From: a virus
DNA length: 12,097 nt
UHGV virus genome: UHGV-0124803
Direction: 5' to 3' (one strand)
In this document: positions 1 to 12,047 of the stretch, one piece after another
Position numbering within the stretch: the stretch's first letter is position 1
Layout: each line of letters opens with the position of its first letter
Translations under genes and position numbers: made by a program
Notes under the pieces: model-generated
What the model saw: the letters and a program-made list of their open reading frames with translations, nothing else
Databases searched by the model: none
Told to the model about the DNA's origin: nothing

Positions 1-49
1 ATGTTTGCAGTTTCAAGGCATTTTCTTAAATCTGCTGGTGATGCCCTGT

Positions 50-700
50 TCATGCAGCACGCTCCCGCCCCTGGATGTCTGTTGGTGACAGCGGAGCATT
101 GCTGAATGCATTTGTTAATCCGCCAATATCCAACGCGTATCCAGGGTGTAGTTGCACTGCCGGGTCTTCGCACTGATTACCCCAAACATCAAAGCCATGA
201 GACGTCTGGCGGGCGAACAGTTCAATGCGAGAAACATCGCCTAATAATTGCACAAGTTTTTCACGAACGATATCTGGCTTTCTTGAATGCTCAAGCCGCG
301 GTGCGGTAAATGACTGAACGATCCCTGCATTAATGCGCGTAGGTAGTTTTCCCTTTACCGCAAACAGGCAATCTTCACTATTGGCGCGAGTCATGTGTCC
401 CATACCCATAACCAGTTTATCTGGTTGTCGACTACCACATTTTATCCACGTGAAGCCCTTCATCGTCATCAGACGGAATCCCCAGGCTTCAACAACTTTT
501 AGTGCTTCGAGTGGTTGTGTTGGCACCCACCACATGGCCAACAGACAGTTTTCATCGGCCAAATCCCATACAGGAAGGCGGCAGATATCCAGCACACTCA
601 TAACCGGATATTTAAAACCGGCACCGCGATTACCATCTGCGGCTTTGTCCCGGTATACCCAGGGTGGATCTGCATAGATTAGTGTGTATTTCTTAGTCAT
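50..700 (-). CDS. MT-A70 family N6-adenine DNA methyltransferase (phage orphan methylase)
   Basis: ORF 50..712; DPPW catalytic motif (YADPPWVY) close to the N-terminus. ATG at 700 (MTKKYT) preferred over the GTG at 712; the upstream ORF stop (693-695) overlaps it. Confidence 0.75.
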   Translation of the reverse strand: MTKKYTLIYADPPWVYRDKAADGNRGAGFKYPVMSVLDICRLPVWDLADENCLLAMWWVPTQPLEALKVVEAWGFRLMTMKGFTWIKCGSRQPDKLVMGMGHMTRANSEDCLFAVKGKLPTRINAGIVQSFTAPRLEHSRKPDIVREKLVQLLGDVSRIELFARQTSHGFDVWGNQCEDPAVQLHPGYALDIGGLTNAFSNAPLSPTDIQGRERAA

Positions 701-941
701 AAACCACCCCACAACATCCTATGCCGCTATAGTCGCCACGGCGAAGGCCGTTACCTTTTGTGATACATTGGTCCCTGCGAACCGCGATCCTTGCACGTTC
801 AACATCACCAGAAGCAACATCCATACACTGAAGCCAAAGGTGAGCGGCAATGCGGAATTGCCCTTTTTTCTCTCTTTCAATCGCGCGTTTTTCGATCTCT
901 ATCGCCGCAGGAGTAACGGCGACAATCTTTGACGGACTGCG
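693..941 (-). CDS. Hypothetical small protein (83-99 aa; start ambiguous: ATG 941, ATG 959 or GTG 992)
   Basis: ORF 693..992 in the same orientation between the AlpA-like gene and the methylase; stop overlaps the methylase start; AAGG 6 nt upstream of ATG 941. No recognisable motif. Confidence 0.4.
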   Translation of the reverse strand, partial: RSPSKIVAVTPAAIEIEKRAIEREKKGQFRIAAHLWLQCMDVASGDVERARIAVRRDQCITKGNGLRRGDYSGIGCCGVVYD

Positions 942-1101
942 CATTGAAACCTTATTCATGTGATATTTTTCAAGTCGGCTTAACTTTCTCACTTAATCCA
1001 ACCCTCTCTGAAAATTAATGCCAGCAGATAAAGCCATGCTGAAACAGAGGCCAGGAATAAGTACCATCCTGACCATTTGCTCCAGTGCCTTAGCAGCGCA
1101 C

Positions 1102-1350
1102 TCATGCAGCGTTGCTCACGGGACGATATACACGTTGCTGAACAGGAGGCTTTTTACCCTGGAACTCTGCCGGGCTTGCTGCCTGACGTTCATCAAGCCA
1201 ACGCTCAACTTCATCACGGTTCCATGCGCAGCGTTTATCGGTGATATACCAGCGTTTAGGAAATTCCCCTGCGCGCTCCATACGGTCGATAGTGCTCCAT
1301 GACAGTGGCACCACCGCCAGGAGTTCCTTCTTACCTAATGCACCTTTCAT
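1102..1350 (-). CDS. AlpA-family helix-turn-helix regulator / excisionase-like protein
   Basis: 82-aa ORF with the AlpA pattern: HTH (LLAVVPLSWSTIDRMERAGEFPK) followed by a W...E..ERWL segment; RBS AGAGAGG upstream of the ATG. Confidence 0.6.
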   Translation of the reverse strand: MKGALGKKELLAVVPLSWSTIDRMERAGEFPKRWYITDKRCAWNRDEVERWLDERQAASPAEFQGKKPPVQQRVYRPVSNAA

Positions 1351-1372
1351 AAATACCTCTCTTGGTTGCAGT

Positions 1373-1391
1373 GCGGCGCGCGTGGCGCCGC
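1373..1391 (-). other. GC-rich hairpin between recT and the AlpA-like gene (7-bp stem GCGGCGC/GCGCCGC, 5-nt loop), no U-tract
   Basis: Perfect inverted repeat read directly from the sequence, 9 nt downstream of the recT stop on the minus strand; lacks the T-run of an intrinsic terminator. Confidence 0.3.
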
Positions 1392-1399
1392 GGTGGTGG

Positions 1400-2422
1400 T
1401 TACTCGAATTCTGGACGCATATCGTTAAGCGTCATCATGAATTTTTGGTGATATTCATCACCGAGCTTTTCAGCCATGGTGTTAATTTCATTTTCAGCGC
1501 GCTTGAACATCGTTTTTGCATCTTCAGCAGATGGATCTAGGCTATTAAGTATCGCGATGATATATTCTCGAGCTTCTTCTCGTTCTGAATCTGAAATTGG
1601 CGACAGGTGTTGACGCTCATCGTCAACTACGGAATATTCACCAGTGATAACAGCTGCGTTATCTTGGCTAAGTCCAGCTTCAGCGCGCTCATCCATAACA
1701 ACAGCCTTCTGCATTTCAATAGAAACAGGAAGATATTTGAACAGTCGGCGAATTACTGTTTTTTTAGCCATCTCATCGAAGTGATCAACCCATGGGCCAC
1801 TGCTACCGGCTTTGCTCAGTGCACGAACTTTCTCAACGTCTGCCCGGCTCATAACTTCAAATTGCACTCCGCCATCTTTCAGTCGTGCAACGGCGTAAAC
1901 GTGCGTTAATTCTCCGCGGTCACCTGTTTCGCAAGGTAAATGCTCGAGCGTTTCTTCCAGGCCGTATGAGTAGCTGAATTTGTCGTTTGTATGTACGGTA
2001 CGAGCCGAGATACTCAGGATCTGCCCAGAGCGGCGGGCAAGGTCAATCATTCCGCGATAGCCGATAATCAGCTGTGCTTCTGTAGATACGGTTTCCCATC
2101 TTCCATTTACTTTCTGGCGTTTGTCGAACGGTATCAGGTAAGCGTGTCCAAGAGCTCCGCCTGGTTCAAGACCCAATTGGGCACATTGCATAATTGCCCC
2201 CAGGAAGCTGGCTTGGTCGCATGATGCAAGTTTTGGAACCTTTCGGATCTCTGTGGTTGCTATGCGCGCCAGACGGTCTGCTGTCATGTGCTTTGGAAGT
2301 GCCAAAGCCATCTGAGCTTTAATTTTTGGGTCTGCCAGAAGTCCGGCCAGAGTTGTTGGTTTCTCATTATGATGTGCAACTTGGTTACCGGTAGCCGCTG
2401 CCTTAAGTGCATTGATAGACAT
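1400..2422 (-). CDS. recT: RecT-family single-strand annealing recombinase with an acidic C-terminal extension
   Basis: 340-aa ORF with RecT-type core motifs (GYRGMIDLARRSGQ, LIPF); strong RBS AAGGAG 7 nt upstream of the ATG; 9 nt after the exonuclease stop. Confidence 0.9.
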   Translation of the reverse strand: MSINALKAAATGNQVAHHNEKPTTLAGLLADPKIKAQMALALPKHMTADRLARIATTEIRKVPKLASCDQASFLGAIMQCAQLGLEPGGALGHAYLIPFDKRQKVNGRWETVSTEAQLIIGYRGMIDLARRSGQILSISARTVHTNDKFSYSYGLEETLEHLPCETGDRGELTHVYAVARLKDGGVQFEVMSRADVEKVRALSKAGSSGPWVDHFDEMAKKTVIRRLFKYLPVSIEMQKAVVMDERAEAGLSQDNAAVITGEYSVVDDERQHLSPISDSEREEAREYIIAILNSLDPSAEDAKTMFKRAENEINTMAEKLGDEYHQKFMMTLNDMRPEFE

Positions 2423-2431
2423 TTTTTCTCC

Positions 2432-3331
2432 TTACTTCATTCTGAAGACGCGTTGTGTCGTTGTTGTTTTGAATTTTTCGAATAACTCAGGGTGTACTGA
2501 CTGGAATAGCTTCTGGTCGAATCTGTTGCTGATCTGAGATTTCCATGTGCAGAGCGGCTTTCCGTCCAGGGTCAGGACTGAGTGCTCTTGCATGTACATC
2601 TTCAGCTTCTCTTCTGATATAGCTATTTCTTCTTCCAGTGATTTTCTGCGTGACTTCATGTCTCGTAGATCGTTGAATAGTGCGAGTGCCTTTCCGTCAG
2701 CCTCGATACTTGTCCCGGCATCTTTCTCAAACATCAGCGATACATCGCTTACGCTGGTAGCTTCCGGCGGGTTAAGATTTTTCACTCGGTCCCAGAAAGC
2801 GATTTCTTTTTCTAAGATCGCCTGGATAGTTTCTTCATCACGCTCAACCCGATAGATTCGGAAGTCGTCGCCACCGATAAGCACACCGAAAACGCATACC
2901 TGTTTGTTTGTAACCATCAACCCGTGCATGGCCTGGGCCGTGTAATGCACAGGAATTGCATCTGTCTGGATTTCTCCCCATTCTTTGGCTTTGAACGGAC
3001 TAACTGTTTTGATCTCAATGTTCTCGCCTGACGCTGCTTCTGCATCGATCTCAGCTGCAATAAAATCGTAATCACGGTGGATATAGCGGTTTCCGCGATG
3101 AACGATTTCCATCCCTGTTTCCTCAGAAAGCAGGTCTATTACGTATGGCTCCATACGCTGGCCACGCGTGAAAACTTTCTGCTTGCTTGGGTCTACTGGT
3201 TTGACACGTGGCTGGACCTTATCCAGATAAACCTCAAGCGGGGTGCGCCATGGGCTAATTCCAAGAATCCCTGCAACATCGCTTCCTCCGATGTATTTTG
3301 TTCTATCCATGATTCCAGCGTTCCGCATCAT
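2432..3331 (-). CDS. YqaJ-type (lambda-exonuclease-like) recombination exonuclease
   Basis: 299-aa ORF; N-terminal YqaJ signature KYIGGSDVAGILGISPWRTPLEVY; the ATG at 3331 overlaps the upstream stop (ATGA coupling), with an alternative internal ATG at 3310 (MDRTKY). Paired with recT downstream. Confidence 0.85.
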   Translation of the reverse strand: MMRNAGIMDRTKYIGGSDVAGILGISPWRTPLEVYLDKVQPRVKPVDPSKQKVFTRGQRMEPYVIDLLSEETGMEIVHRGNRYIHRDYDFIAAEIDAEAASGENIEIKTVSPFKAKEWGEIQTDAIPVHYTAQAMHGLMVTNKQVCVFGVLIGGDDFRIYRVERDEETIQAILEKEIAFWDRVKNLNPPEATSVSDVSLMFEKDAGTSIEADGKALALFNDLRDMKSRRKSLEEEIAISEEKLKMYMQEHSVLTLDGKPLCTWKSQISNRFDQKLFQSVHPELFEKFKTTTTQRVFRMK

Positions 3332-3627
3332 GCCGCGTCCCTCTGCCCATCAAGCTGATCCGCCAGCTCCCAGCGGGCGATAATTGCCATTGCCTCGCGC
3401 CGGTAGGCATCCATCAGTTCTTCGAACTCAGGGCTGTCTTTAGCAGCCTCCAGCACTTCCTGACGAACGCCTTTGCCTGTTACAACGTCGAAAGTTGAGG
3501 CCAGTTGATGAAGCCGGATACTCTCAATCAGTTCAACTTGTCGGTCATATAGCTGTTCTGACAGGCGGTAGTCCTTGTCGAATGCCAGCATGATTTTTTG
3601 AAGATTTTTCTGCTGATTAACGTTCAT
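3328..3627 (-). CDS. Hypothetical protein (99 aa) heading the recombination operon
   Basis: ORF 3328..3642; the ATG at 3627 (MNVNQQ) has a strong RBS GGGAGGG; stop overlaps the exonuclease start. No motif recognised. Confidence 0.55.
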   Translation of the reverse strand: MNVNQQKNLQKIMLAFDKDYRLSEQLYDRQVELIESIRLHQLASTFDVVTGKGVRQEVLEAAKDSPEFEELMDAYRREAMAIIARWELADQLDGQRDAA

Positions 3628-3629
3628 TA

Positions 3630-3782
3630 TCAGCCCTCCCATATCTCGTTATCGTTGGCCACATCGCGAGCTTCTTTGCTGACGAAAGCCCACTTAATGC
3701 CTTCCTGTAAGGTGCGGAACTTCCAGCTCATGAATCCGCATGCAGTAACGCAGTACCAACCGTTGATGATTTTCCACTGCAT
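3630..3782 (-). CDS. Hypothetical small protein (50 aa, Trp/Cys-containing), first ORF after the PL-like promoter
   Basis: Not in the ORF track (under 60 aa). Read by hand: MQWKIINGWYCVTACGFMSWKFRTLQEGIKWAFVSKEARDVANDNEIWEG; RBS GAGGT about 7 nt upstream of the ATG at 3782; stop 2 nt before the next gene start. Confidence 0.3.
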   Translation of the reverse strand: MQWKIINGWYCVTACGFMSWKFRTLQEGIKWAFVSKEARDVANDNEIWEG

Positions 3783-3788
3783 AACTTG

Positions 3789-3793
3789 TTACC
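3789..3793. promoter_or_regulatory. Operator half-site (TTACC) over the RBS of the first leftward ORF
   Basis: Single pentamer matching the half-site of the palindromic operator; could equally be chance. Confidence 0.2.
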
Positions 3794-3801
3794 TCGGCCT
3801 G

Positions 3802-3816
3802 TTACCGCTGAGGTAA
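3802..3816. promoter_or_regulatory. Operator site OL-a (TTACCgctgaGGTAA)
   Basis: Perfect 15-bp palindrome TTACC-N5-GGTAA just downstream of the putative -10 of the leftward promoter. Confidence 0.6.
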
Positions 3817-3844
3817 TGATTATGCGTATTTGGTTTGGTGTCAA
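3817..3844 (-). promoter_or_regulatory. PL-like leftward early promoter (-35 TTGACA at 3844..3839; -10 uncertain, CATAAT or TAATCA at about 3824..3817)
   Basis: Consensus -35 hexamer on the minus strand flanked by two operator palindromes, upstream of the recombination operon; the -10 and its spacing are not clear-cut. Confidence 0.4.
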
Positions 3845-3863
3845 TAGATATGAGTTAAAAAAA

Positions 3864-3878
3864 TTACCCGTAAGGTAA
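3864..3878. promoter_or_regulatory. Operator site OL-b (TTACCcgtaaGGTAA)
   Basis: Perfect 15-bp palindrome, centre 62 bp from OL-a, upstream of the -35. Confidence 0.6.
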
Positions 3879-3888
3879 TCTATCTGGC

Positions 3889-3914
3889 AATAAAAAAGCC
3901 GCCATGAGGCGGCT
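3889..3914 (-). terminator. Rho-independent terminator after the repressor gene
   Basis: 7-bp GC-rich stem AGCCGCC/GGCGGCT with a 4-nt loop, followed on the minus strand by TTTTTTATT; about 20 nt downstream of the repressor stop. Confidence 0.6.
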
Positions 3915-3935
3915 TACTTACTGAAAACTATAGTT

Positions 3936-4520
3936 TTATTGTTTGCTTTTTTCGTTCTGGTTGATGACAAATTCAATGTAACTTTCGATCTTTGCTTTCT
4001 CGGTTTCGGGTAACAATGCGTAGCGTGAGCGGTCATAGTTGATAGTCGCAGGGTCGTGCGGGTGAATCAGTAGTTCATATCCGTGACGCCCGAATGCGGA
4101 TGCAACATTCTCCAGGGTGGAAATGGAAACGCTGACCTCATTGTTTAACAGGCGGCTGATTGTCACCTGGGCGACGCCGGATGCGCGGTGAAGTTTTCCC
4201 TGCGTTGAAAGGTCGCGGCTTTCGCTCATCCAGCGTTCCAGGTTGTGAGCCGCCAGCTGACCAATGTCGCTTGGGCCGACAGGCTGAAAACCTTCCTGAG
4301 AAAGCGAGCGATCGATATCAAGCCAGTTACGTGGTTTATTGGCGGCAGCTTCAATTTTTCGCGCAACCTGGTCGCCGATAACCTTCTTGCCAAGAGCCCA
4401 GCGGTTTACCAGATTTGCCTGAGTTCCAAGTTTTTCTGCCATCCGCGTCTGAACACCATTGAATTCACGGTCGATCAAGTCGTTGAGATTTTGCCTGCGG
4501 ACGTCCTGGATACTTTTCAT
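3936..4520 (-). CDS. Immunity repressor (CI-like function), tandem HTH, no S24 peptidase domain
   Basis: 194-aa ORF divergent from the cro-like gene; two HTH-like segments (around residues 22-45 and 115-145, the second XRE-like: GVAQVTISRLLNNE...SISTLENVASAFG); no Ala-Gly/Ser-Lys autocleavage module visible; flanked by operator palindromes on both sides. Confidence 0.7.
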   Translation of the reverse strand: MKSIQDVRRQNLNDLIDREFNGVQTRMAEKLGTQANLVNRWALGKKVIGDQVARKIEAAANKPRNWLDIDRSLSQEGFQPVGPSDIGQLAAHNLERWMSESRDLSTQGKLHRASGVAQVTISRLLNNEVSVSISTLENVASAFGRHGYELLIHPHDPATINYDRSRYALLPETEKAKIESYIEFVINQNEKSKQ

Positions 4521-4575
4521 TTTCTGGAAAATCGCCTCATATATGAATCAGTAGATGATTCAATTTAAAGCAATA

Positions 4576-4590
4576 TTACCCAACAGGTAA
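4576..4590. promoter_or_regulatory. Operator site OR-a (TTACCcaacaGGTAA)
   Basis: Perfect 15-bp palindrome in the divergent repressor/cro intergenic region. Confidence 0.6.
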
Positions 4591-4620
4591 ATGCACCCCA
4601 TAGGTAACTATCCTTGATTT

Positions 4621-4649
4621 TTGTTACCTTATGGGTGAATATTTATTAT
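4621..4649 (+). promoter_or_regulatory. PR-like rightward early promoter (-35 TTGTTA 4621-4626, 17-nt spacer, -10 TATTAT 4644-4649)
   Basis: Sigma70-like hexamers at 17-bp spacing, about 25 nt upstream of the cro-like ATG; operator OR-b lies in the spacer. Confidence 0.45.
4625..4639. promoter_or_regulatory. Operator site OR-b (TTACCttatgGGTgA, one mismatch)
   Basis: Near-perfect palindrome overlapping the PR-like -35 and spacer; centre 49 bp from OR-a; an extra GGTAA half-site at 4603-4607. Confidence 0.5.
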
Positions 4650-4674
4650 CTGAAATAAATATCAGGCAATAGCT

Positions 4675-4905
4675 ATGAGCGATAACGGACATTTCGATTT
4701 CAAAAAGCACTGGCTTGCACTTACTCCGGATGAGCGTGAAGCCTTCGCACAGGAAGCCGGAACGACGAGTCACTATATCCAGACTCACTTAACAGGTAAG
4801 CGCAAAATGCCAGGTAAGGTATTGATGAATGGGCTTTTTAAAGCCTGTAAAACAAGACAATGGCTGCGCTCAAAAGCAGAACTGGCATACTTCTTCTACT
4901 CATGA
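4675..4905 (+). CDS. Cro-like small DNA-binding regulator
   Basis: 76-aa ORF divergent from the repressor, first gene after the PR-like promoter; HTH-like segment (EREAFAQEAGTTSHYIQTHL). Confidence 0.6.
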   Translation: MSDNGHFDFKKHWLALTPDEREAFAQEAGTTSHYIQTHLTGKRKMPGKVLMNGLFKACKTRQWLRSKAELAYFFYS

Positions 4906-4927
4906 TATCCAGCCACAACCCTCTGTA

Positions 4928-4949
4928 GACCGCCATCCGGCGGTCTTTT
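4928..4949 (+). terminator. tR1-like intrinsic terminator after the cro-like gene
   Basis: 7-bp stem GACCGCC/GGCGGTC, loop ATCC, followed by TTTT; about 23 nt downstream of the cro-like stop. Confidence 0.5.
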
Positions 4950-4960
4950 CATATCTATTC

Positions 4961-4975
4961 GTACCTCAAAGGTAA
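4961..4975. promoter_or_regulatory. Degenerate operator-like site (gTACCtcaaaGGTAA)
   Basis: 14 of 15 positions match the palindrome; lies between the tR1-like terminator and the next gene. Confidence 0.3.
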
Positions 4976-5053
4976 TAAAAAACCAAATCTGGTTGATCAA
5001 ATTTTCCAATTGTGCAAAATAGCCAATATCAATAACAAAAAGGGGCGGAAAAA

Positions 5054-5266
5054 TTGAAGATAGTAACCAGAATGGAGGCCGCAAAAGCCGGGTTAAATCG
5101 CTATTTCACAGGAAAGCGGTGCCGTCACGGCCATCTCTCTGAAAGGTATGTTCTGAACGGAACATGTGTTGAATGTGCAATGAATAGCGCCAACCGCCAT
5201 CGTAATGAATTTGCTTGTGCACTAAAGAGTGCAAGAGGGGAAACCTATGGCAAGCAGCTGGATTAA
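5054..5266 (+). CDS. Small Cys/His-containing protein at the cII position (possible zinc-binding regulator); start TTG 5054 or ATG 5072
   Basis: ORF between the cro-like and O-like genes; pattern C-x-H-x-H ... C-x2-C (CRHGH ... CVEC); GGGG 8 nt upstream of the TTG; no resemblance to lambda CII recognised. Confidence 0.4.
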   Translation: MKIVTRMEAAKAGLNRYFTGKRCRHGHLSERYVLNGTCVECAMNSANRHRNEFACALKSARGETYGKQLD

Positions 5267-6077
5267 GGTTGAAGTTATCACTCCTGATAAACCTGAAATT
5301 TTTCAGATAGCAGAAATTCTGGGTATTGATCCAGATGCTGTTCTTGGAAAGCTGGTTCGTATATGGGCATGGGCTGACCAGCAAACAATAGACGGTAACG
5401 CTGGCAGCGTTACAAAAGGAGTACTTGATAGACTCGCTTTTATTACAGGATTTGCTGACGCCCTCATTAGCGTCGGATGGCTTGCTTATCATGACGGCAA
5501 ACTAATTCTTCCAAACTTTGAGCGACACAATGGAGAATCATCGAAAAAACGTGCACTTACGAATAGAAGAGTGGCAGAGCATCGAAAACGAGTAACGCAA
5601 AAAGTAACGCCAACAGCGTTACAAAAGGAGTTACCAGAGGAAGAGGAAGAGGAAGATATATATAAAACCCCACACATAGCACACGCGCGCGAGAGTGATC
5701 CGACCAGTGAAGCGAACGGTACGCCGTTGCAGGTGGCAGAACCTGCATTTCTGGATGGCCTGAGTGAACCTATTGGGAAATTTCCGATGATCGATGGCTG
5801 GCATCCATCGCCGGATTTTCGACGGCGTGCTGCGCTGTGGGGAACGGCCCTGCCGGAACCGGAATTTACACCTGCTGAACTTGCTGCATTCCGGGATTAC
5901 TGGATGGCTGAGGGCAAAGTGTTCACGCAGGTTCAGTGGGAACAAAAATTCGCCAGGCACGTAAATCATATCAGGGGAAAATCAAAAAACGTCGGGAAAA
6001 GCGATGAGCTTGACTGGAATAACACTGACTGGATAGAAGGGGTGTGGGATGAAATCAACTCCAGAACTTCTCAATGA
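5247..6077 (+). CDS. Replication initiator / replisome organiser (O-like function) with DnaT-like C-terminal domain
   Basis: ORF 5229..6077; ATG at 5247 has RBS AGAGGGGA; acidic linker (EEEEEED); the C-terminal W/F-rich segment resembles the DnaT-type domain; sits immediately upstream of and overlapping the P-like gene; contains the candidate origin repeats. Confidence 0.65.
   Translation: MASSWIKVEVITPDKPEIFQIAEILGIDPDAVLGKLVRIWAWADQQTIDGNAGSVTKGVLDRLAFITGFADALISVGWLAYHDGKLILPNFERHNGESSKKRALTNRRVAEHRKRVTQKVTPTALQKELPEEEEEEDIYKTPHIAHARESDPTSEANGTPLQVAEPAFLDGLSEPIGKFPMIDGWHPSPDFRRRAALWGTALPEPEFTPAELAAFRDYWMAEGKVFTQVQWEQKFARHVNHIRGKSKNVGKSDELDWNNTDWIEGVWDEINSRTSQ
5590..5668. repeat. Candidate replication origin: GTAACGC iterons plus GA-rich and AT-rich tract inside the O-like gene
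   Basis: GTAACGC at 5591-5597 and 5602-5608 (11-bp phasing), inverted GCGTTAC at 5615-5621; the 18-mer CAGCGTTACAAAAGGAGT recurs at about 5405 and about 5614 in different reading frames; followed by GAGGAAGAGGAAGAGGAAG and ATATATATAAAA. Confidence 0.4.
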
Positions 6078-6825
6078 GTACGATCGCTTACGTGAGCATG
6101 GTGTTGCTGTGCATGAAGAGCGGCGTGACAGCAATGGCAAAAAGGAGCAGGTCGCTAGAATTTTCAATGAACTATTTGTCCAGTTACAGGCTGCATTTCC
6201 TGCAAGCGTTTCGACCATAAGGGAGCAGAACAAACTTAATGAATTCCGTAAGCAATGGATGCTTGCGTTTCTGGAGAATGGGATCACTACAATGGAACAG
6301 GTTAACGCTGGTATGCGCCACGCCCGCGCCAGTGAATCTCCGTTCTGGCCGTCGCCAGGGCAATTTATCAAGTGGTGTAAAGACAGCAAGATGGTTCTTG
6401 GCGTCACCATTGACGATGTGATGGCGGAGTTTCACCGGTACAGCAAGGAAAAAAGTTTATATCCTGGTGGTCCCGAAAGATTCCCGTGGCGGCATCCGGT
6501 TATGTACTGGGTCGTATGTGATACCCGCCGTGCAATGTATCAGCGCCAGCTTAGCGAGATTGAGGTTGAGAAACATGCGCGCAGGCTGCTTGATGATTGG
6601 GCGAAAAAGGTGGCTTCCGGACAGCAGATACCCGATCCGGTGATCAGCATACAGGCAAAGCCAGAACCCATGAGTACGCCTCCGGACACAGGGAGAGACG
6701 TTTACCATCCACCAGGGCGAAGTTTCGGGTGTATGCCTAACGCCGCTACCCTGGGGGGAATAACACCGGCGCAGTGGCTGATGGAGGAATACAGGCGGGG
6801 AAAGGCGGCAGGATTTATCAAGTAA
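6049..6825 (+). CDS. Lambda P-family replication protein (helicase loader)
   Basis: 258-aa ORF; the segment FPASVSTIREQNKLNEFRKQWMLAFLENGITTMEQVNAGMRHAR...PFWPSPGQFIKWC closely matches lambda P as I recall it; overlaps the O-like gene by 29 nt. Confidence 0.85.
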   Translation: MKSTPELLNEYDRLREHGVAVHEERRDSNGKKEQVARIFNELFVQLQAAFPASVSTIREQNKLNEFRKQWMLAFLENGITTMEQVNAGMRHARASESPFWPSPGQFIKWCKDSKMVLGVTIDDVMAEFHRYSKEKSLYPGGPERFPWRHPVMYWVVCDTRRAMYQRQLSEIEVEKHARRLLDDWAKKVASGQQIPDPVISIQAKPEPMSTPPDTGRDVYHPPGRSFGCMPNAATLGGITPAQWLMEEYRRGKAAGFIK

Positions 6826-6830
6826 TACCA

Positions 6831-6850
6831 GCGCGATAGCGCATTTTTTT
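6831..6850 (+). terminator. Weak terminator-like element after the P-like gene (GCGC-gata-GCGC then ATTTTTTT)
   Basis: Only a 4-bp stem but a 7-T run immediately downstream of the P stop; low confidence. Confidence 0.3.
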
Positions 6851-6855
6851 ACGTC

Positions 6856-6883
6856 TTGACAATTACCTGTTAGGTAATAAAAT
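6856..6883 (+). promoter_or_regulatory. Third repressor-gated promoter (-35 TTGACA 6856-6861, 16-nt spacer, -10 TAAAAT 6878-6883)
   Basis: Consensus -35 and 5/6 -10 at good spacing; an operator palindrome fills the spacer and a second lies 62 bp downstream at the RBS of the first accessory gene. Confidence 0.5.
6863..6877. promoter_or_regulatory. Operator site O3-a (TTACCtgttaGGTAA)
   Basis: Perfect 15-bp palindrome exactly between the -35 and -10 of the third promoter. Confidence 0.6.
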
Positions 6884-6924
6884 ATTCTAAACTCTATTGA
6901 TTTCGTGTCTTATGTGGTTTTTAA

Positions 6925-6939
6925 TTACCTCTGGGGTAA
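6925..6939. promoter_or_regulatory. Operator site O3-b (TTACCtctggGGTAA)
   Basis: Perfect palindrome 62 bp (centre to centre) from O3-a, the same spacing as the OL pair; 4 nt upstream of the ATG at 6943. Confidence 0.6.
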
Positions 6940-6942
6940 ATC

Positions 6943-7287
6943 ATGAGAAAACAGATACAGGCTCTTGGTCGACTCAAAACAGGCCAGATGAACAAAACAG
7001 AATCTGCGTATTGCCAGCACCTTGAGCAGCGTAAACGTGCAGGGGAAATCGCCTGGTATCGATTCGAGGGTATCAAGCTGCGGTTAGCTGACAACACGTT
7101 CTATACGCCCGATTTTGCTGTGATGCTCGCCACCGGCGAGATGGAACTGCACGAAGTGAAAGGTTTCTGGACCGACGATGCCAGGGTGAAAACCAAAGTC
7201 GCCGCAGATCAGTATCCGTTCCGAATCATCGGGGTAACGGTTAAGCCAAAGAAAGCAGGTGGTGGCTGGAACATCGAAGAGTTCTGA
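6943..7287 (+). CDS. DUF1064-like putative PD-(D/E)xK nuclease
   Basis: 114-aa ORF; pattern KTESAYCQHLEQRKRAGEI...YTPDFAV...ELHEVKGFWT matches my recollection of the DUF1064 / restriction-endonuclease-like fold (D ... E-x-K). Confidence 0.5.
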   Translation: MRKQIQALGRLKTGQMNKTESAYCQHLEQRKRAGEIAWYRFEGIKLRLADNTFYTPDFAVMLATGEMELHEVKGFWTDDARVKTKVAADQYPFRIIGVTVKPKKAGGGWNIEEF

Positions 7288-7348
7288 ATCGACGATCTTT
7301 TTAGTTATCAATGTAATCAATAAGTTATGTGGATAAGCGAGGGTAAAG

Positions 7349-7831
7349 ATGGAAAGTAATATCAAAGGGTTAGTTGCCGCCGGGCATGAGATGGCTTCGG
7401 AACTGAAAGCAGAATGTGGTGCCGTTGATATGCGCAGTGTGGCAAAGCTGATCAGCGATTTGGCAACGCAACTGGAAGTTCAGTTGGTGCGTGCTAATGC
7501 GCTGGCGGCGGAGAATGCGGCGTTTAAGGACATAAACGCATGGTGCAAAACAGATGCGTTCAGCAACATGTATCGTGAGTTCAAAACAGCAGAAGCAGTT
7601 GGATGTTGCAACATTGACTGTATGCATGACGCAATGGTGGTCGCAATTATGCACGCACCAGAAGCGCCAGCCACCGATGTTTTTCTGGCTGAAATTGAAC
7701 GCAAAGCAATCCGCAAATTCATTAACAGCATTGAACACATCCTGCGTGACAAGCTGTATCCGTATGACACCGAAGAGATGCTTGAGGCTATGCGTATTTT
7801 TCTGGAAGAACAGGGAGGCGAGCAAAAATGA
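7349..7831 (+). CDS. Hypothetical protein (160 aa)
   Basis: ORF with RBS GAGGG 5 nt upstream of the ATG; stop overlaps the next start (ATGA); antisense ORFs here are Cys/His-rich and lack RBSs. Confidence 0.55.
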   Translation: MESNIKGLVAAGHEMASELKAECGAVDMRSVAKLISDLATQLEVQLVRANALAAENAAFKDINAWCKTDAFSNMYREFKTAEAVGCCNIDCMHDAMVVAIMHAPEAPATDVFLAEIERKAIRKFINSIEHILRDKLYPYDTEEMLEAMRIFLEEQGGEQK

Positions 7832-8145
7832 CGATCACAAAACAACGTGTAGAAGAAATCATATCCCGCATTGAAATGTATGGGCATGGTGCAGGGTATA
7901 CCGCTGACGAGGTTTATGACCTGGCTGTACTGGCGCTGAATTTATCAAATATCGCAAACCTGAAGCGATACGAGCTTGATATGGATGGTTGTGACTCGTT
8001 CGGTCAGGATTGTGGAGCTGACATGACTGAAGATTCTGATGGCGATTATGTCCTGTTTGATGACGTGGTTAAGTTGTTTGAGTTTGATACAACCACTCAG
8101 AAGCCAGAAAGCCCAGCAAAGGAGGCAACCAGTGAGCGAAATTAA
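7828..8145 (+). CDS. Hypothetical acidic protein (105 aa); N-terminal module shared with the 9111 protein
   Basis: RBS AGGGAGG upstream; N-terminus MTITKQRVEEIISRIEMYG resembles MTTITKERLLTIKQWRETYG of the 9111..9941 product. Confidence 0.5.
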   Translation: MTITKQRVEEIISRIEMYGHGAGYTADEVYDLAVLALNLSNIANLKRYELDMDGCDSFGQDCGADMTEDSDGDYVLFDDVVKLFEFDTTTQKPESPAKEATSERN

Positions 8146-8818
8146 TTACCAGGCACTGCGTGAGGCGGCGGAACGTGCAATTCCGGCAATGGAACGCCTG
8201 TTAATGTTGCCAGTTGATGATGATTTGTTAAGTGAACAGGAACTTAAAGATTACGGTGTGGATATTGATGCGCTCAACGCCTTCAAATTTCTGACCGGAC
8301 CAGAAACCGTGCTGGCACTACTGGATGAACGGGAAAGGAACCAGCAATACATCAAACGCCGCGACCAGGAGAACGAGGATATTGCGCTTACGGTTGGGAG
8401 GCTGCGCGTTGAGCTGGAAGGCAAAGACAGCAAAATAGCCAATCTTACCGCCGAACGCGATGCTCTTCGTGAAGGTGAGATGGGCGACGCTAGGCATAGC
8501 AACACACGGGCCGCAGCTGATATCTACTTCCAACTGGTCGAGGAGTGCGAAATTCCTGCTGGCGGATCTCTGGTCGAGTACGTTGACGATATGCGCGAGA
8601 AGCTGGAAGCCGCAGAGAAGCGCATTGCAGAGTTAGAAAGTGGTTCTGAGGCACAAAAGTTAGTTGAAGCAATCATTGTTGCGATAGAAAACGAACAGGA
8701 AAGGCTTTTTGATGAAGATTACCTAATGGATTCGAAAGAATGCATTGACGTAATTCGTGAAGAAGTAAAGCGATGGAATGATTCCCGTGCCGCTGGCATT
8801 CGCATCAAAGGAGAGTGA
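8132..8818 (+). CDS. Ea22-like family protein (coiled-coil)
   Basis: GTG start at 8132 with RBS AAAGGAGG 6 nt upstream (the track ORF starts further upstream at 8039); segment LLDERERNQQYIKRRDQENEDIALTVGRLRVELE matches my recollection of prophage Ea22-like proteins. Longer than lambda Ea22, so a homologue rather than the lambda gene. Confidence 0.55.
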   Translation: MSEINYQALREAAERAIPAMERLLMLPVDDDLLSEQELKDYGVDIDALNAFKFLTGPETVLALLDERERNQQYIKRRDQENEDIALTVGRLRVELEGKDSKIANLTAERDALREGEMGDARHSNTRAAADIYFQLVEECEIPAGGSLVEYVDDMREKLEAAEKRIAELESGSEAQKLVEAIIVAIENEQERLFDEDYLMDSKECIDVIREEVKRWNDSRAAGIRIKGE

Positions 8819-8819
8819 T

Positions 8820-9107
8820 ATGGCAACTTTGCAGGAATTAATCGACCTGACGCCAGAACAGGAAAAAGCGTGGAATCGCCTTGTGAAGGCTGTAAAGGAT
8901 TTCAGGGCAGCCGGAGGAAAGTTTTATAGCGTCCTGGACACGCTGAGCGCATACAACGGCGAGCACGTTGCCAGCATTGATAACGATAAGGGCTACCACA
9001 CTGCAAGCGTCTATATGCCTAGCATTGATGCGCCAGGGCTAACCAGTTGGGCTGATGATTGGCACGGCATCACGCTGAAAGATGGCGTTGAAGTGGATGA
9101 GGACTAA
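8820..9107 (+). CDS. Hypothetical protein (95 aa)
   Basis: ATG at 8820 with RBS AAGGAGAG 5 nt upstream, immediately after the Ea22-like stop; no recognisable motif. Confidence 0.5.
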   Translation: MATLQELIDLTPEQEKAWNRLVKAVKDFRAAGGKFYSVLDTLSAYNGEHVASIDNDKGYHTASVYMPSIDAPGLTSWADDWHGITLKDGVEVDED

Positions 9108-9110
9108 CAC

Positions 9111-9941
9111 ATGACCACTATTACCAAAGAGCGACTACTGACAATCAAGCAGTGGCGCGAAACATACGGACCTGGTAGCAACGTTGTACTGCCAGCAGAA
9201 GAAGCGGAAGAGCTGGCACGGATTGCGCTGGCATCGCTGGAAGCAGAGCCTGTTCTGTATCAGTCCTGCACTCGCCCCACCTGGAATAGCGGTGTTCCGT
9301 GGACGGAATGGAAAGAACGTAGTCGTGAGGGCTACGAAGACGATTTGCGCTTTACAGACACGCCTGACCATGCCGGTTGGATAAACAAATGCCGAAAACT
9401 ATATACCACTCCGCCAGCGCCGGTAATACAGGCTGATGTCGCGCAAGCAATTGAAAATCTCAAGCAGAAGTTAGTGGAATGCAATCGCTATAACTACTGC
9501 GCAGATGCAGTTAAAGGCGTAGAGGATGCCTGCCGTGCTGTTAGCTATAGCCAAGCCGACAATCAACCAGCATCTGGCAACCAGGCTGCCGAATCCAATC
9601 GCAGTAATGAGTGGACCGGCAATCCTGATATTGATAACGCCATCATCATGCTCGACCGCATAGATACGCTGGAAAATTGCGATGATGACCGTATTGAGGC
9701 GGTTAAGGCTGTTTTGCGTAGACTGGCTGGCAACTATCCGGTAACTCCGGATGGTTGGATAAGCTGTAGTGAGCGAATGCCGGATAAGTTAATTCCGGTA
9801 ATGGTCATGTATGAAGACGGTGAGATGTGGTCTGCAATGTGGAATGGCAATCGCTGGGATGATGGCACCGAATATCCGGATCCGCACTCAGTTACGCACT
9901 GGCGTGAAATGCCAGCAGCACCGCAGCAGGAGGTGAAGTGA
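9111..9941 (+). CDS. DUF551 domain protein
   Basis: 276-aa ORF; C-terminal GWISCSERMPDKLIPVMV ... VTHWREMPAAP matches the DUF551 pattern as I recall it; RBS GAGGA upstream. Confidence 0.55.
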   Translation: MTTITKERLLTIKQWRETYGPGSNVVLPAEEAEELARIALASLEAEPVLYQSCTRPTWNSGVPWTEWKERSREGYEDDLRFTDTPDHAGWINKCRKLYTTPPAPVIQADVAQAIENLKQKLVECNRYNYCADAVKGVEDACRAVSYSQADNQPASGNQAAESNRSNEWTGNPDIDNAIIMLDRIDTLENCDDDRIEAVKAVLRRLAGNYPVTPDGWISCSERMPDKLIPVMVMYEDGEMWSAMWNGNRWDDGTEYPDPHSVTHWREMPAAPQQEVK

Positions 9942-10162
9942 TGGACTCCTTCGCGAAATATACGATTATTGACTGGATAGCCTTCCTTCAGGTTTTGCTC
10001 ATCTGGTTTTATATGGCTTACAGGAGTGGACAGTGGATTGTCAGTGTAGCCTGTAGCAAGGGATGGCGTTGGTGGAACCGAAAGAATAAAAAGCGCTGGC
10101 CTTGGATTCGTTTTACGAAGCATTCAATCTTAACAGTCTTCAGCCTGGTTCTGTCGTTGTAG
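9941..10162 (+). CDS. Small hydrophobic (probable membrane) protein, 73 aa
   Basis: ATG overlaps the upstream stop (TGATG); hydrophobic N-terminal helix (IIDWIAFLQVLLIWFYMAY), basic W/R/K-rich middle, hydrophobic C-terminus. Confidence 0.35.
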   Translation: MDSFAKYTIIDWIAFLQVLLIWFYMAYRSGQWIVSVACSKGWRWWNRKNKKRWPWIRFTKHSILTVFSLVLSL

Positions 10163-10216
10163 TCACCACTCAAAGCGGCATGACGATACAAATTCACAAG
10201 CCAAAGGAGGAAGGTC

Positions 10217-10501
10217 GTGGCTAACCTGCAACTTGCCGTTAAAGGTGAATACTTCGATGCCATGATTCGCGGAGAGAAAACGGAAGAGTATCGCCTGTGT
10301 AATGACTACTGGAATAAGCGAATTATGTTCCGCGAGTATGACCGCCTGATTATCACAAAGGGATATCCGAAGCGCGACGATTCCAGCCGCAGAATTGACG
10401 TCCCGTATGACGGATATGAAATCAAGACAATCACACATCCCCACTTCGGTGATAAACCGGTAAAGGTGTTCGCGATAAAGGTGAATATCGGCAATGAATA
10501 A
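10217..10501 (+). CDS. ASCH/PUA-like domain protein (DUF3850-like), 94 aa
   Basis: GTG start with strong RBS AAAGGAGG 6 nt upstream; pattern LQLAVKGEYFDAMIRGEKTEEYRLCND resembles ASCH/DUF3850 proteins as I recall them. Confidence 0.5.
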   Translation: MANLQLAVKGEYFDAMIRGEKTEEYRLCNDYWNKRIMFREYDRLIITKGYPKRDDSSRRIDVPYDGYEIKTITHPHFGDKPVKVFAIKVNIGNE

Positions 10502-10573
10502 CAATCCTCGCACTCGCGGGGATTTCTTTTATCTGAACTCGCTACGGCGAGTTTTGTTTTATGGAGATGATAA

Positions 10574-10741
10574 ATGCACTTCCGAGTCACAGGTGAATGG
10601 AATGGAGAACCATTCAACAGAGTTATCGAAGCAGAGAACATCAATGACTGCTATGACCACTGGATGCTGTGGGCGCAGATAGCACATGCAGACGTAACCA
10701 ATATTCGAATTGAAGAACTGAAAGAACACCAAGCCGCCTGA
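10574..10741 (+). CDS. 55-codon small ORF upstream of xis (resembles my recollection of a lambda orf-55)
   Basis: Hand-read ORF MHFRVTGEWNGEPFNRVIEAENINDCYDHWMLWAQIAHADVTNIRIEELKEHQAA with RBS GGAG 7 nt upstream; the stop is embedded in a terminator hairpin; not in the ORF track. Confidence 0.4.
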   Translation: MHFRVTGEWNGEPFNRVIEAENINDCYDHWMLWAQIAHADVTNIRIEELKEHQAA

Positions 10742-10753
10742 TGGCGGTTTTTT
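10733..10753 (+). terminator. Intrinsic terminator hairpin immediately upstream of xis
   Basis: Stem GCCGCC/GGCGG(T), loop TGAT, followed by TTTTTT. Confidence 0.5.
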
Positions 10754-10754
10754 C

Positions 10755-10768
10755 TTGCGTGTAATTGC
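10755..10768 (+). promoter_or_regulatory. pI-type CII-activated promoter box (TTGC-N6-TTGC: TTGCgtgtaaTTGC)
   Basis: Tetrad repeat with 6-bp spacing placed so that transcription would start inside xis; this is the lambda pI arrangement as I know it. Confidence 0.5.
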
Positions 10769-10780
10769 GGAGACTTTGCG

Positions 10781-10999
10781 ATGTACTTGACACTTCAGGA
10801 GTGGAACGCACGCCAGCGACGCCCAAGAAGCCTTGAAACAGTTCGTCGATGGGTACGCGAGTGCAGGATATTCCCTCCTCCGGTTAAGGATGGAAGAGAG
10901 TATCTGTTCCACGAATCAGCGGTAAAGGTTGACTTAAATCGACCAGTAACAGGTAGCCTTTTGAAGAGGATCAGAAATGGGAAGAAGGCGAAGTCATGA
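10781..10999 (+). CDS. xis: Excisionase Xis (lambda-type)
   Basis: 72-aa product MYLTLQEWNARQRRPRSLETVRRWVRECRIFPPPVKDGREYLFHESAVKVDLNRPVTGSLLKRIRNGKKAKS, which I recognise as lambda Xis; 23-nt overlap with int as in lambda. Confidence 0.95.
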   Translation: MYLTLQEWNARQRRPRSLETVRRWVRECRIFPPPVKDGREYLFHESAVKVDLNRPVTGSLLKRIRNGKKAKS

Positions 11000-12047
11000 G
11001 CGCCGGGATTTACCCCCTAACCTTTATATAAGAAACAATGGATATTACTGCTACAGGGACCCAAGGACGGGTAAAGAGTTTGGATTAGGCCGAGACAGGC
11101 GAATCGCAATCACTGAAGCTATACAGGCCAACATTGAGTTATTTTCAGGACACAAACACAAGCCTCTGACAGCGAGAATCAACAGTGATAATTCTGTTAC
11201 GTTACATTCATGGCTTGATCGCTACGAAAAAATCCTCGCCAGCAGAGGAATCAAGCAGAAGACTCTCATAAATTACATGAGCAAAATTAAAGCAATAAGG
11301 AGGGGTCTGCCTGATGCTCCACTTGAAGACATCACCACAAAAGAAATTGCGGCAATGCTCAATGGATACATAGACGAGGGCAAGGCTGCGTCAGCCAAGT
11401 TAATCAGATCAACACTGAGCGATGCATTCCGAGAGGCAATAGCTGAAGGCCATATAACAACAAACCCGGTCGCTGCCACTCGCGCAGCAAAATCAGAGGT
11501 AAGGAGATCAAGACTTACGGCTGACGAATACCTGAAAATTTATCAAGCAGCAGAATCATCACCATATTGGCTAAGACTTGCAATGGAACTGGCTGTTGTT
11601 ACCGGGCAACGAGTTGGTGATTTATGCGAAATGAAGTGGTCTGATATCGTAGATGGATATCTTTATGTCGAGCAAAGCAAAACAGGCGTAAAAATTGCCA
11701 TCCCAACAGCATTGCATGTTGATGCTCTCGGGATATCAATGAAGGAAACACTTGATAAATGCAAAGAGATTCTTGGCGGAGAAACCATAATTGCATCTAC
11801 TCGTCGTGAACCGCTTTCATCCGGCACAGTATCAAGGTATTTTATGCGCGCACGAAAAGCATCAGGTCTTTCCTTCGAAGGGGATCCGCCAACCTTTCAC
11901 GAGTTGCGCAGTTTGTCTGCAAGACTCTATGAGAAGCAGATAAGCGATAAGTTTGCTCAACATCTTCTCGGGCATAAGTCGGACACCATGGCATCACAGT
12001 ATCGTGATGACAGAGGCAGGGAGTGGGACAAAATTGAAATCAAATAA
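10977..12047 (+). CDS. int: Tyrosine integrase Int (lambda-type)
   Basis: 356-aa product starting MGRRRSHERRDLPPNLYIRNNGYYCYRDPRTGKEFGLGRDRR, essentially lambda Int as I recall it; catalytic-region motifs HELRSLSARL and LGH...SQYRDD...W present. Confidence 0.97.
   Translation: MGRRRSHERRDLPPNLYIRNNGYYCYRDPRTGKEFGLGRDRRIAITEAIQANIELFSGHKHKPLTARINSDNSVTLHSWLDRYEKILASRGIKQKTLINYMSKIKAIRRGLPDAPLEDITTKEIAAMLNGYIDEGKAASAKLIRSTLSDAFREAIAEGHITTNPVAATRAAKSEVRRSRLTADEYLKIYQAAESSPYWLRLAMELAVVTGQRVGDLCEMKWSDIVDGYLYVEQSKTGVKIAIPTALHVDALGISMKETLDKCKEILGGETIIASTRREPLSSGTVSRYFMRARKASGLSFEGDPPTFHELRSLSARLYEKQISDKFAQHLLGHKSDTMASQYRDDRGREWDKIEIK

Follow-up and report, generated by a model that had tools for sequence, protein, structure and literature searches.

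A conserved operator pair upstream of the accessory genes of a Uetakevirus-type phage, a putative third Rep-controlled point of the early-right unit

The stretch of DNA analysed here (the window) is the 12,097-nucleotide virus genome UHGV-0124803. Positions 1 to ~10490 correspond to the early region of a Uetakevirus (ε15/phiV10/SPC32H type), with a DNA identity of 97–98% to phiV10, TL-2011b and ZX5 and of ~80% to ε15. An ordinary Uetakevirus prophage in a draft E. coli assembly (L146, GCA_032151465.1) is 100.000% identical to the window over positions 1–9784. Our analysis concerns the third site, a 117-bp gap at 6826–6942 located between a P-like replication gene and a resolvase-like gene, the latter being followed by ea-type accessory genes. 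The elements in and around the gap are listed below.

6049–6825, plus strand: P-like replication gene (Pfam Phage_lambda_P, E = 1.7e-55), which closes the preceding early-right segment
6831–6850, plus strand: hairpin and T-run (GCGC at 6831–6834, loop GATA, GCGC at 6839–6842, A, T7 at 6844–6850)
6856–6883, plus strand: outer sigma-70-like promoter, predicted (TTGACA at 6856–6861, 16 bp, TAAAAT at 6878–6883; predicted start near 6890)
6863–6877, no strand assigned: putative operator O3a, TTACCTGTTAGGTAA, that is TTACC-TGTTA-GGTAA, part of a 17-bp palindrome at 6862–6878 and within the promoter spacer
6894–6925, plus strand: inner segment, cTATTGATT, 17 bp, TTTAAT, delimited by cassette comparison and in the register of the PL promoter between its operators
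6925–6939, no strand assigned: putative operator O3b, TTACCTCTGGGGTAA, that is TTACC-TCTGG-GGTAA, overlapping the Shine-Dalgarno sequence and lying 3 nt (ATC) before the ATG at 6943
6943–7287, plus strand: DUF1064 gene, a Holliday-junction-resolvase-like nuclease (Pfam DUF1064; PHROG 190 Holliday junction resolvase, E = 6e-43) and first gene of the presumably gated unit

The local arrangement proposed in the initial annotation was recovered in each of its elements. After the P-like gene lies a GCGC hairpin followed by T7 (6831–6850), whose 4-bp GC stem and folding energy (−8.4 kcal/mol, z = −2.2) are those of a weak intrinsic terminator; the phiV10 record labels the equivalent hairpin a putative rho-independent terminator. 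The near-consensus promoter (TTGACA, 16 bp, TAAAAT) is present at 6856–6883 with 11 matches out of 12, its spacer holds the palindrome at 6863–6877, and the second palindrome (6925–6939) begins 62 bp downstream of the start of the first, at the ribosome-binding site of the 6943 gene. The T7 run is separated from TTGACA by 5 nt, TTGACA from O3a by 1 nt and TAAAAT from O3b by 41 nt. These elements and their spacing are seen directly in the window. We also noticed an antisense promoter-like sequence between the operators (AAGACA-16-TAGAAT, 9/12, 6911–6884 on the minus strand), facing the P-like gene; its −10 is missing, by eye, from ε15-type sequences.

The motif shared by O3a and O3b recurs elsewhere. 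TTACCN5GGTAA, with at most one mismatch, was found in seven copies in the window against 0.17 expected, a number reached in 0 of 200 shuffles, and all seven copies fall in intergenic control regions of these 12 kb. The palindromes are thus clearly non-random and placed as expected for repressor operators. Outside the third site, the operators and the features associated with them are the following.

3802–3878, minus strand: PL-like cassette, with operators at 3802–3816 and 3864–3878, 62 bp apart, bracketing a leftward TTGACA-17-AATCAT
3936–4520, minus strand: Rep (194 aa; Pfam HTH_3; match to SPC32H Rep), the presumed operator-binding prophage repressor
4576–4590 and 4624–4638, no strand assigned: rep/cro-like intergenic operators of a PR/PRM-like switch, in a region invariant among relatives
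4927–4946: strong terminator (−15 kcal/mol) after the cro-like gene
4961–4975: degenerate operator, GTACCTCAAAGGTAA, downstream of that terminator

The PL-like promoter follows closely on the repressor gene and the terminator of that gene. Sequence comparison suggests that the PL-like and third-site cassettes are paralogous, forming a duplicated regulatory module. The two have in common the order terminator, ~11 nt, operator, 47 nt, operator, and cTATTGA is found at an equal offset within the 47-nt segment of each. Further to the right, a weak promoter-like sequence (TTGATC-16-CAAAAT, 4993–5020) is located ahead of a 70-aa gene at 5054, and the stretch 4976–5053 is nearly invariant (pi 0.007). 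The region 4927–5053 may be another Rep-controlled restart point.

Homology between the window Rep and SPC32H Rep (PDB 5d50) was observed over the full length of the protein (E = 3.5e-42). SPC32H Rep binds palindromic DNA as a tetramer, one tetramer being enough for repression, and this tetramer is disassembled and released by a tetrameric antirepressor (PMC9638917). In the ε15 RefSeq record, 'protein_bind: repressor, lysogeny' is annotated at the site orthologous to O3a (35906–35922) and at the PL sites. The third site is therefore already partly known, its first operator being marked in the ε15 record, and the cassette is an ordinary one for the genus. From these data we infer that Rep binds here, that a single tetramer bridges the two operators and that the promoter is active. 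A literature search for Uetakevirus transcription-start or site-binding data found none, the primary papers on ε15 and SPC32H lying beyond its reach; the ZX5 paper predicts four promoters, with positions not given.

Conservation of the site was examined at two scales. Rep proteins in the phage records fall into four classes, with 99–100%, 76–78%, 45% and 43% identity to the window Rep, and one representative of each class was compared directly together with phiV10. The same layout (hairpin and T7, 11 nt, operator, 47 nt, operator over the Shine-Dalgarno sequence and ATG) recurs in phiV10, ε15, SPC32H, Tyrion and BUCT711, with Rep proteins sharing only 43–78% identity with that of the window. 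In the six phages compared directly, the third site sits between the last replication gene and a resolvase-type gene, the slot of the DUF1064 gene being filled by a RuvC-like resolvase in ε15 and Tyrion. The PL-like operator pair also has a 62-bp spacing across the phages compared (63 bp in one). A test of covariation between operator and repressor class was uninformative, with the same TTACC/GGTAA half-sites in all four Rep classes.

The larger census was obtained by a pattern scan of IMG/VR followed by anchoring on the hairpin/terminator only; its 104 loci comprise 86 distinct third-site segments. In 83 of these 86, neither operator has a mismatch in its half-sites and the 62-bp register is exact. 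Diversity was estimated on 46 E. coli-type loci and on a 19-locus subset not selected by motif, with results that agree. In the 19 loci, pi was 0.000 and 0.011 for the operator half-sites, 0.000 for the hairpin (likewise in the 46 loci) and 0.044–0.050 for synonymous (third-codon) sites of the flanking genes. Across all Rep classes the stem of the hairpin is kept while its loop varies, as expected for a functional structure. This conservation is directly visible in the alignments: strong purifying constraint acts on the half-sites, on the hairpin and on the operator spacing, which is close to six helical turns.

Two further observations were made on the distribution of the site. The third-site region (window 6790–6990) occurs in 529 of 5426 complete E. 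coli genomes (~10%), a count that makes phiV10-type prophages common E. coli residents. In one IMG/VR locus (L066, IMGVR_UViG_3300012195_000011), the 47-bp inter-operator segment is missing and the operators lie ~17 bp apart directly before the ATG, a pair resembling the adjacent pair in the ε15 rep-cro region. This locus keeps both operators and the gene, without a recognisable promoter.

The evidence for the promoter is of a different nature. In a promoter scan, TTGACA-16-TAAAAT is the best sigma-70-like site in the window (11/12), and it has the usual sigma-70 features (a spacer within 16–18 bp, and a −10 with A as its second and T as its sixth base). Alone, this match is not significant, since sites scoring 11/12 or better also turn up in 18% of dinucleotide-shuffled windows; the promoter case gains weight from where the site lies and how it is oriented, in a 117-bp gap immediately before a gene. 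Among the 86 distinct relatives, 52 have TAAAAT as their −10 and 20 have CAAAAT (72/86 together). The hexamer at the −35 position has on average ~3.1 matches out of six to TTGACA, compared to 1.5 for random sequence; individual values range from 1 to 6 and are most often 3, and in the E. coli group T1 and A4 hardly vary. No significant association was found between strong −35 and strong −10 alleles (Fisher p = 0.053, Spearman rho 0.08).

The full TTGACA was found only in the window and in L146, identical to it over the region, among the 86 relatives, and the nearest allele in the 5426 complete E. coli genomes is TTGATA, the hexamer of strain B1. Promoter alleles as a whole run from 6/12 (TCAATA/CAAAAC) to 11/12, that of the window being the strongest seen; most relatives have 6–9/12, below what the promoter scan would pick up, and phiV10, with TCAATA/CAAAAT, is among those with a weak allele. 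The −35 hexamer (pi 0.27) changes more quickly than synonymous sites do, and strong purifying selection is therefore not acting on it. On the alleles compared, the promoter is thus less secure than the operators, and the near-consensus −35 appears as an allele-specific rarity and not as a family feature. Of the third repressor-gated early promoter that had been claimed, a third operator-bearing control region stands, together with a near-consensus promoter overlapping O3a in this particular genome; the consensus −35 does not extend beyond the allele.

Such a contrast between operators and promoter raises the possibility that the operator pair is mainly a lock or roadblock, where Rep and the small terminator would stop readthrough to the accessory genes and late regulator in the lysogen. 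After induction, expression would then be mostly by readthrough and the TTGACA allele would be an incidental up-mutation. This fits the invariance of operators and hairpin next to a −35 that is the most variable part of the region, the many relatives with promoter matches of only 6–8/12, a terminator that is weak and hence leaky, and the retention by L066 of both operators without the 47-bp inner segment or a recognisable promoter. However, a TAAAAT abutting O3a is widespread, the −35 hexamer is closer to TTGACA than chance, and promoters are classically occluded by operators placed, as here, exactly in the spacer. We regard a function mainly as roadblock as unlikely, and the two roles of the operator pair could coexist. 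A Rep-occluded promoter, strong here and weak in many relatives, with operators also able to roadblock, is probably the best explanation.

The segment between the operators offers another candidate. It is strongly conserved, with pi of 0.022 in the 46 loci and 0.010 in the 19-locus subset, and the functional promoter might lie within it as a PL-paralogous TTGATT (6897–6902), 17 bp, TTTAAT (6920–6925). Transcription would then start inside O3b and produce a very short leader, and the outer TTGACA/TAAAAT would be coincidental. Besides its low diversity, the register of the third-site cassette with the PL cassette, whose −35 is cTATTGACA, and the presence of 'TATTGA' in all six phages compared directly speak for this inner promoter. 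In nearly all groups, however, the second base of its −10 is a T, where A is almost essential; the exception is the Klebsiella group, in which a TATAAA hexamer one base upstream carries the A. In addition, the inner promoter was missed by the promoter scan, and L066 is devoid of the whole segment yet retains operators and gene. We therefore consider the inner site improbable as the functional promoter. From its sequence, the segment is possibly a vestigial or weak second promoter.

Other candidate functions for the inner segment were looked for. An Rfam search of the window gave no match, so no RNA family covers the segment, and the predicted leader (6890–6960) folds no better than shuffles (z = 0.03). 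An IHF site was considered and rejected, the match to WATCAANNNNTTR being one base out of register (by eye); the ε15 record puts IHF sites elsewhere. The conserved 6894–6924 segment is left unaccounted for by the Rep-occluded promoter model.

Several positions of the two 62-bp cassettes are hypervariable: 6856–6861, 6868–6872 and 6930–6934 at the third site, and 3869–3873 and 3880–3885 in the PL cassette. At the third site, pi reaches 0.27 for the hexamer outside the first operator, 0.43–0.47 for the O3a centre and 0.27–0.28 for the O3b centre; in the PL cassette, it is 0.30 for the centre of the distal operator and 0.57 for the hexamer outside it. Synonymous sites have a pi of 0.04–0.07, and half-sites are invariant alongside the hypervariable centres in near-identical prophages. 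The outer hexamers and the uncontacted operator centres hence diverge at 4–14 times the synonymous rate. No variation was seen in the rep/cro-like switch operators in the 15 loci compared. Simple promoter tuning is not the whole explanation, because the hexamer of the PL cassette is no −35. This hypervariability may result from diversifying selection on Rep affinity, or from a local mutational bias in Rep-bound DNA. That both 62-bp cassettes (PL and third site) contain a deliberately fast-evolving tuning segment is, in our opinion, unlikely. If selection for diversity in Rep affinity and promoter strength were at work, closely related prophages would set different release thresholds for the accessory/late-regulator unit and, among alleles ranging from 6/12 to 11/12, that of the window would be the most strongly 'open' (11/12).

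The initial annotation had gone further, proposing that the accessory genes, xis and int have their own operator-controlled promoter at the third site and that excision functions are derepressed directly on induction. The right end of the window, on which this reading depends, is organised as follows.

10380–10493, no strand assigned: recombination junction located by three-way alignment in the final ~110 nt of ASCH, Uetakevirus-type to the left and lambda/434-type to the right
10503–10554, plus strand: two tandem intrinsic terminators of the lambdoid segment (together −25.5 kcal/mol, z = −5.1)
10731–10750, plus strand: third terminator, with a cII-type site (TTGC-N6-TTGC) at 10755–10768, in a PI-like promoter region
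10781–10999, plus strand: xis, lambda-type, assigned from the Xis translation
10977–12047, plus strand: int, lambda-type, encoding a 356-aa Int (DNA 98–99% identical to 434, HK106 and ev099)

The segment 10494–12097 is lambda/434-type DNA, 98–99% identical to 434, HK106 and ev099. Its Xis translation presumably matches lambda Xis, and the phage 434 record annotates its own Xis as lambda-like and places a terminator, a cII site and pI at homologous positions. ORF55 lies between the tandem terminators and the third one. The ASCH protein is the exact lambdoid 94-aa form, which adjoins xis-int in many lambdoid prophage genomes, and the lambdoid contexts of its gene contain N, cIII and kil. In lambdoid prophages, xis-int adjoin a pectinesterase gene, which we take to be ybhC, on the lambda attachment-site side.

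The ea/DUF551/DUF4752/ASCH block (~8115–10490, ~2.4 kb) is found in pieces, at 91–98% identity, across both phage types, and homology is therefore available for a Uetakevirus-lambdoid join. A junction at 9784–9921 was also considered and rejected, the DUF551 3′ end, DUF4752 and ASCH being present in ordinary Uetakevirus prophages too. None of the 5426 complete E. coli genomes contains the whole window in one place (the best covers 74%) or a high-identity match across 9400–10300; the window int/xis had no match in ~120 viral-contig (IMG/VR) loci, and no second example of the hybrid junction was found in complete E. coli genomes, IMG/VR loci or contigs encoding window proteins. In all 16 other gene contexts inspected, the third-site unit leads to a 112-aa PHROG 'transcriptional regulator' and then to terminase. 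The junction may have arisen once, by recombination of two prophages, or it may be an assembly chimera formed over the ea block that both phage types have.

In favour of a promoter for excision, xis and int are encoded further down the same strand, and the stretch between holds no other strong promoter. However, the two tandem terminators (10503–10554) and the third one (10731–10750) intervene, Rfam detected no known antitermination RNA in the window, and no N-like family was found among 10 proteins scanned. Transcripts from 6890 would thus meet three terminators which lambdoid phages pass with N-modified polymerase, and a promoter serving excision is unsupported. Moreover, the segment, of lambda/434 type, brings cII-type PI signals of its own, and its junction with the unit is absent from the 5426 complete E. 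coli genomes and the 16 contexts, as int and xis are from the ~120 viral-contig loci. The genus has its own excisionase-like gene, of the AlpA family (1102–1350, minus strand), on the PL side, and its integrase is also on that side. We judge it very improbable that the third-site promoter exists for operator-controlled transcription of the accessory genes, xis and int with direct derepression of excision. The proposed direct derepression of xis and int does not hold: xis-int is a lambda/434-type segment spliced on 3.6 kb and three terminators away, and the unit leads elsewhere to the late regulator and terminase, with the genus excisionase and integrase on the PL side. The lambda-type xis-int is joined to the unit by an accident of mosaicism and lies outside the designed regulon.

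Taking these elements together, we favour, with a probability of roughly 0.6, the view that 6826–6942 is a genus-wide third Rep-controlled point of the early-right unit, where transcription would be restarted from a promoter. According to this scheme, the small terminator would end the replication-gene segment, and a sigma-70 promoter would restart transcription near 6890 towards DUF1064 and the ea-like accessory genes; in ordinary members of the genus, the restarted transcript would also reach the 112-aa late regulator. O3a and O3b, 62 bp (about six helical turns) apart, would most likely be bound together by one Rep tetramer, which would keep RNA polymerase off the promoter and form a further obstacle downstream. 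Upon inactivation of Rep by an antirepressor of the family, the third-site, PL- and PR-like promoters would all be released at once. Judged from its sequence, the site is a real, conserved and presumably Rep-gated internal control point of known kind, with an unusually strong promoter allele here.

Such an organisation would give ε15-type phages a way to conduct early transcription without a lambda-style N, terminators cutting the early-right unit and restart points carrying Rep operators. Every segment, including that of the late regulator, would be locked by a single repressor, probably with one tetramer on each operator pair. For annotation, the hairpin and T7, operator, 47 bp and operator over the ribosome-binding site provide a reliable landmark in the genus. 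What looks like an accessory-xis-int operon in the window is the result of a mosaic join, or possibly a chimera of the assembly, and not a regulatory design.

The closest known counterpart is the ε15 site (NC_004775.2, 35906–35922). It occupies the same position between the last replication gene and a resolvase-type gene, with TTACC-N5-GGTAA, a GCGC-N4-GCGC-A-T7 hairpin, TAAAAT after the operator and a second operator 62 bp on over the ribosome-binding site. The ε15 record differs in marking only the first operator at the third site, and no promoter; the hexamer at the −35 position is CAGTGA (2/6) instead of TTGACA, and the downstream gene is RuvC-like whereas that of the window is DUF1064. 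The SPC32H Rep/Ant system (PDB 5d50, 5d4z) provides the mechanism, its Rep being homologous to that of the window over the full length and the same third-site operator pair being present in SPC32H. A Rep tetramer on two palindromes fits the fixed 62-bp pairs (PMC9638917). The SPC32H Rep is, however, only 43% identical, and the antirepressor gene of the present phage, with its control, lies outside the window.

Lambda PL/PR and N resemble the present system in having divergent repressor-controlled early promoters, terminators inside the early units and ea-type accessory genes, and the window ends with a genuine lambda-type xis-int (Xis, Int, cII-type PI and upstream terminator). In contrast to lambda, no N/nut was recognised in the window, which has operator-bearing restart points after terminators. 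Lambda xis and int are read from PL via antitermination or from the cII-dependent PI, whereas the segment of the window is joined to a foreign unit without those factors. The CB repressor of N15 also controls a distant early promoter, that of repA, and is comparable in that one immunity repressor acts on operators at several separate early promoters; it belongs to an unrelated repressor family and its target is a replication gene. Finally, the stoperators of mycobacteriophage L5 are numerous asymmetric, orientation-dependent sites which block elongating polymerase inside early units. They resemble the sites described here, as read in the roadblock alternative, in being repressor sites within early transcription units. 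Unlike them, the window sites are symmetric palindromes, few in number (seven in 12 kb), paired at a fixed spacing and accompanied by promoter-like sequences.
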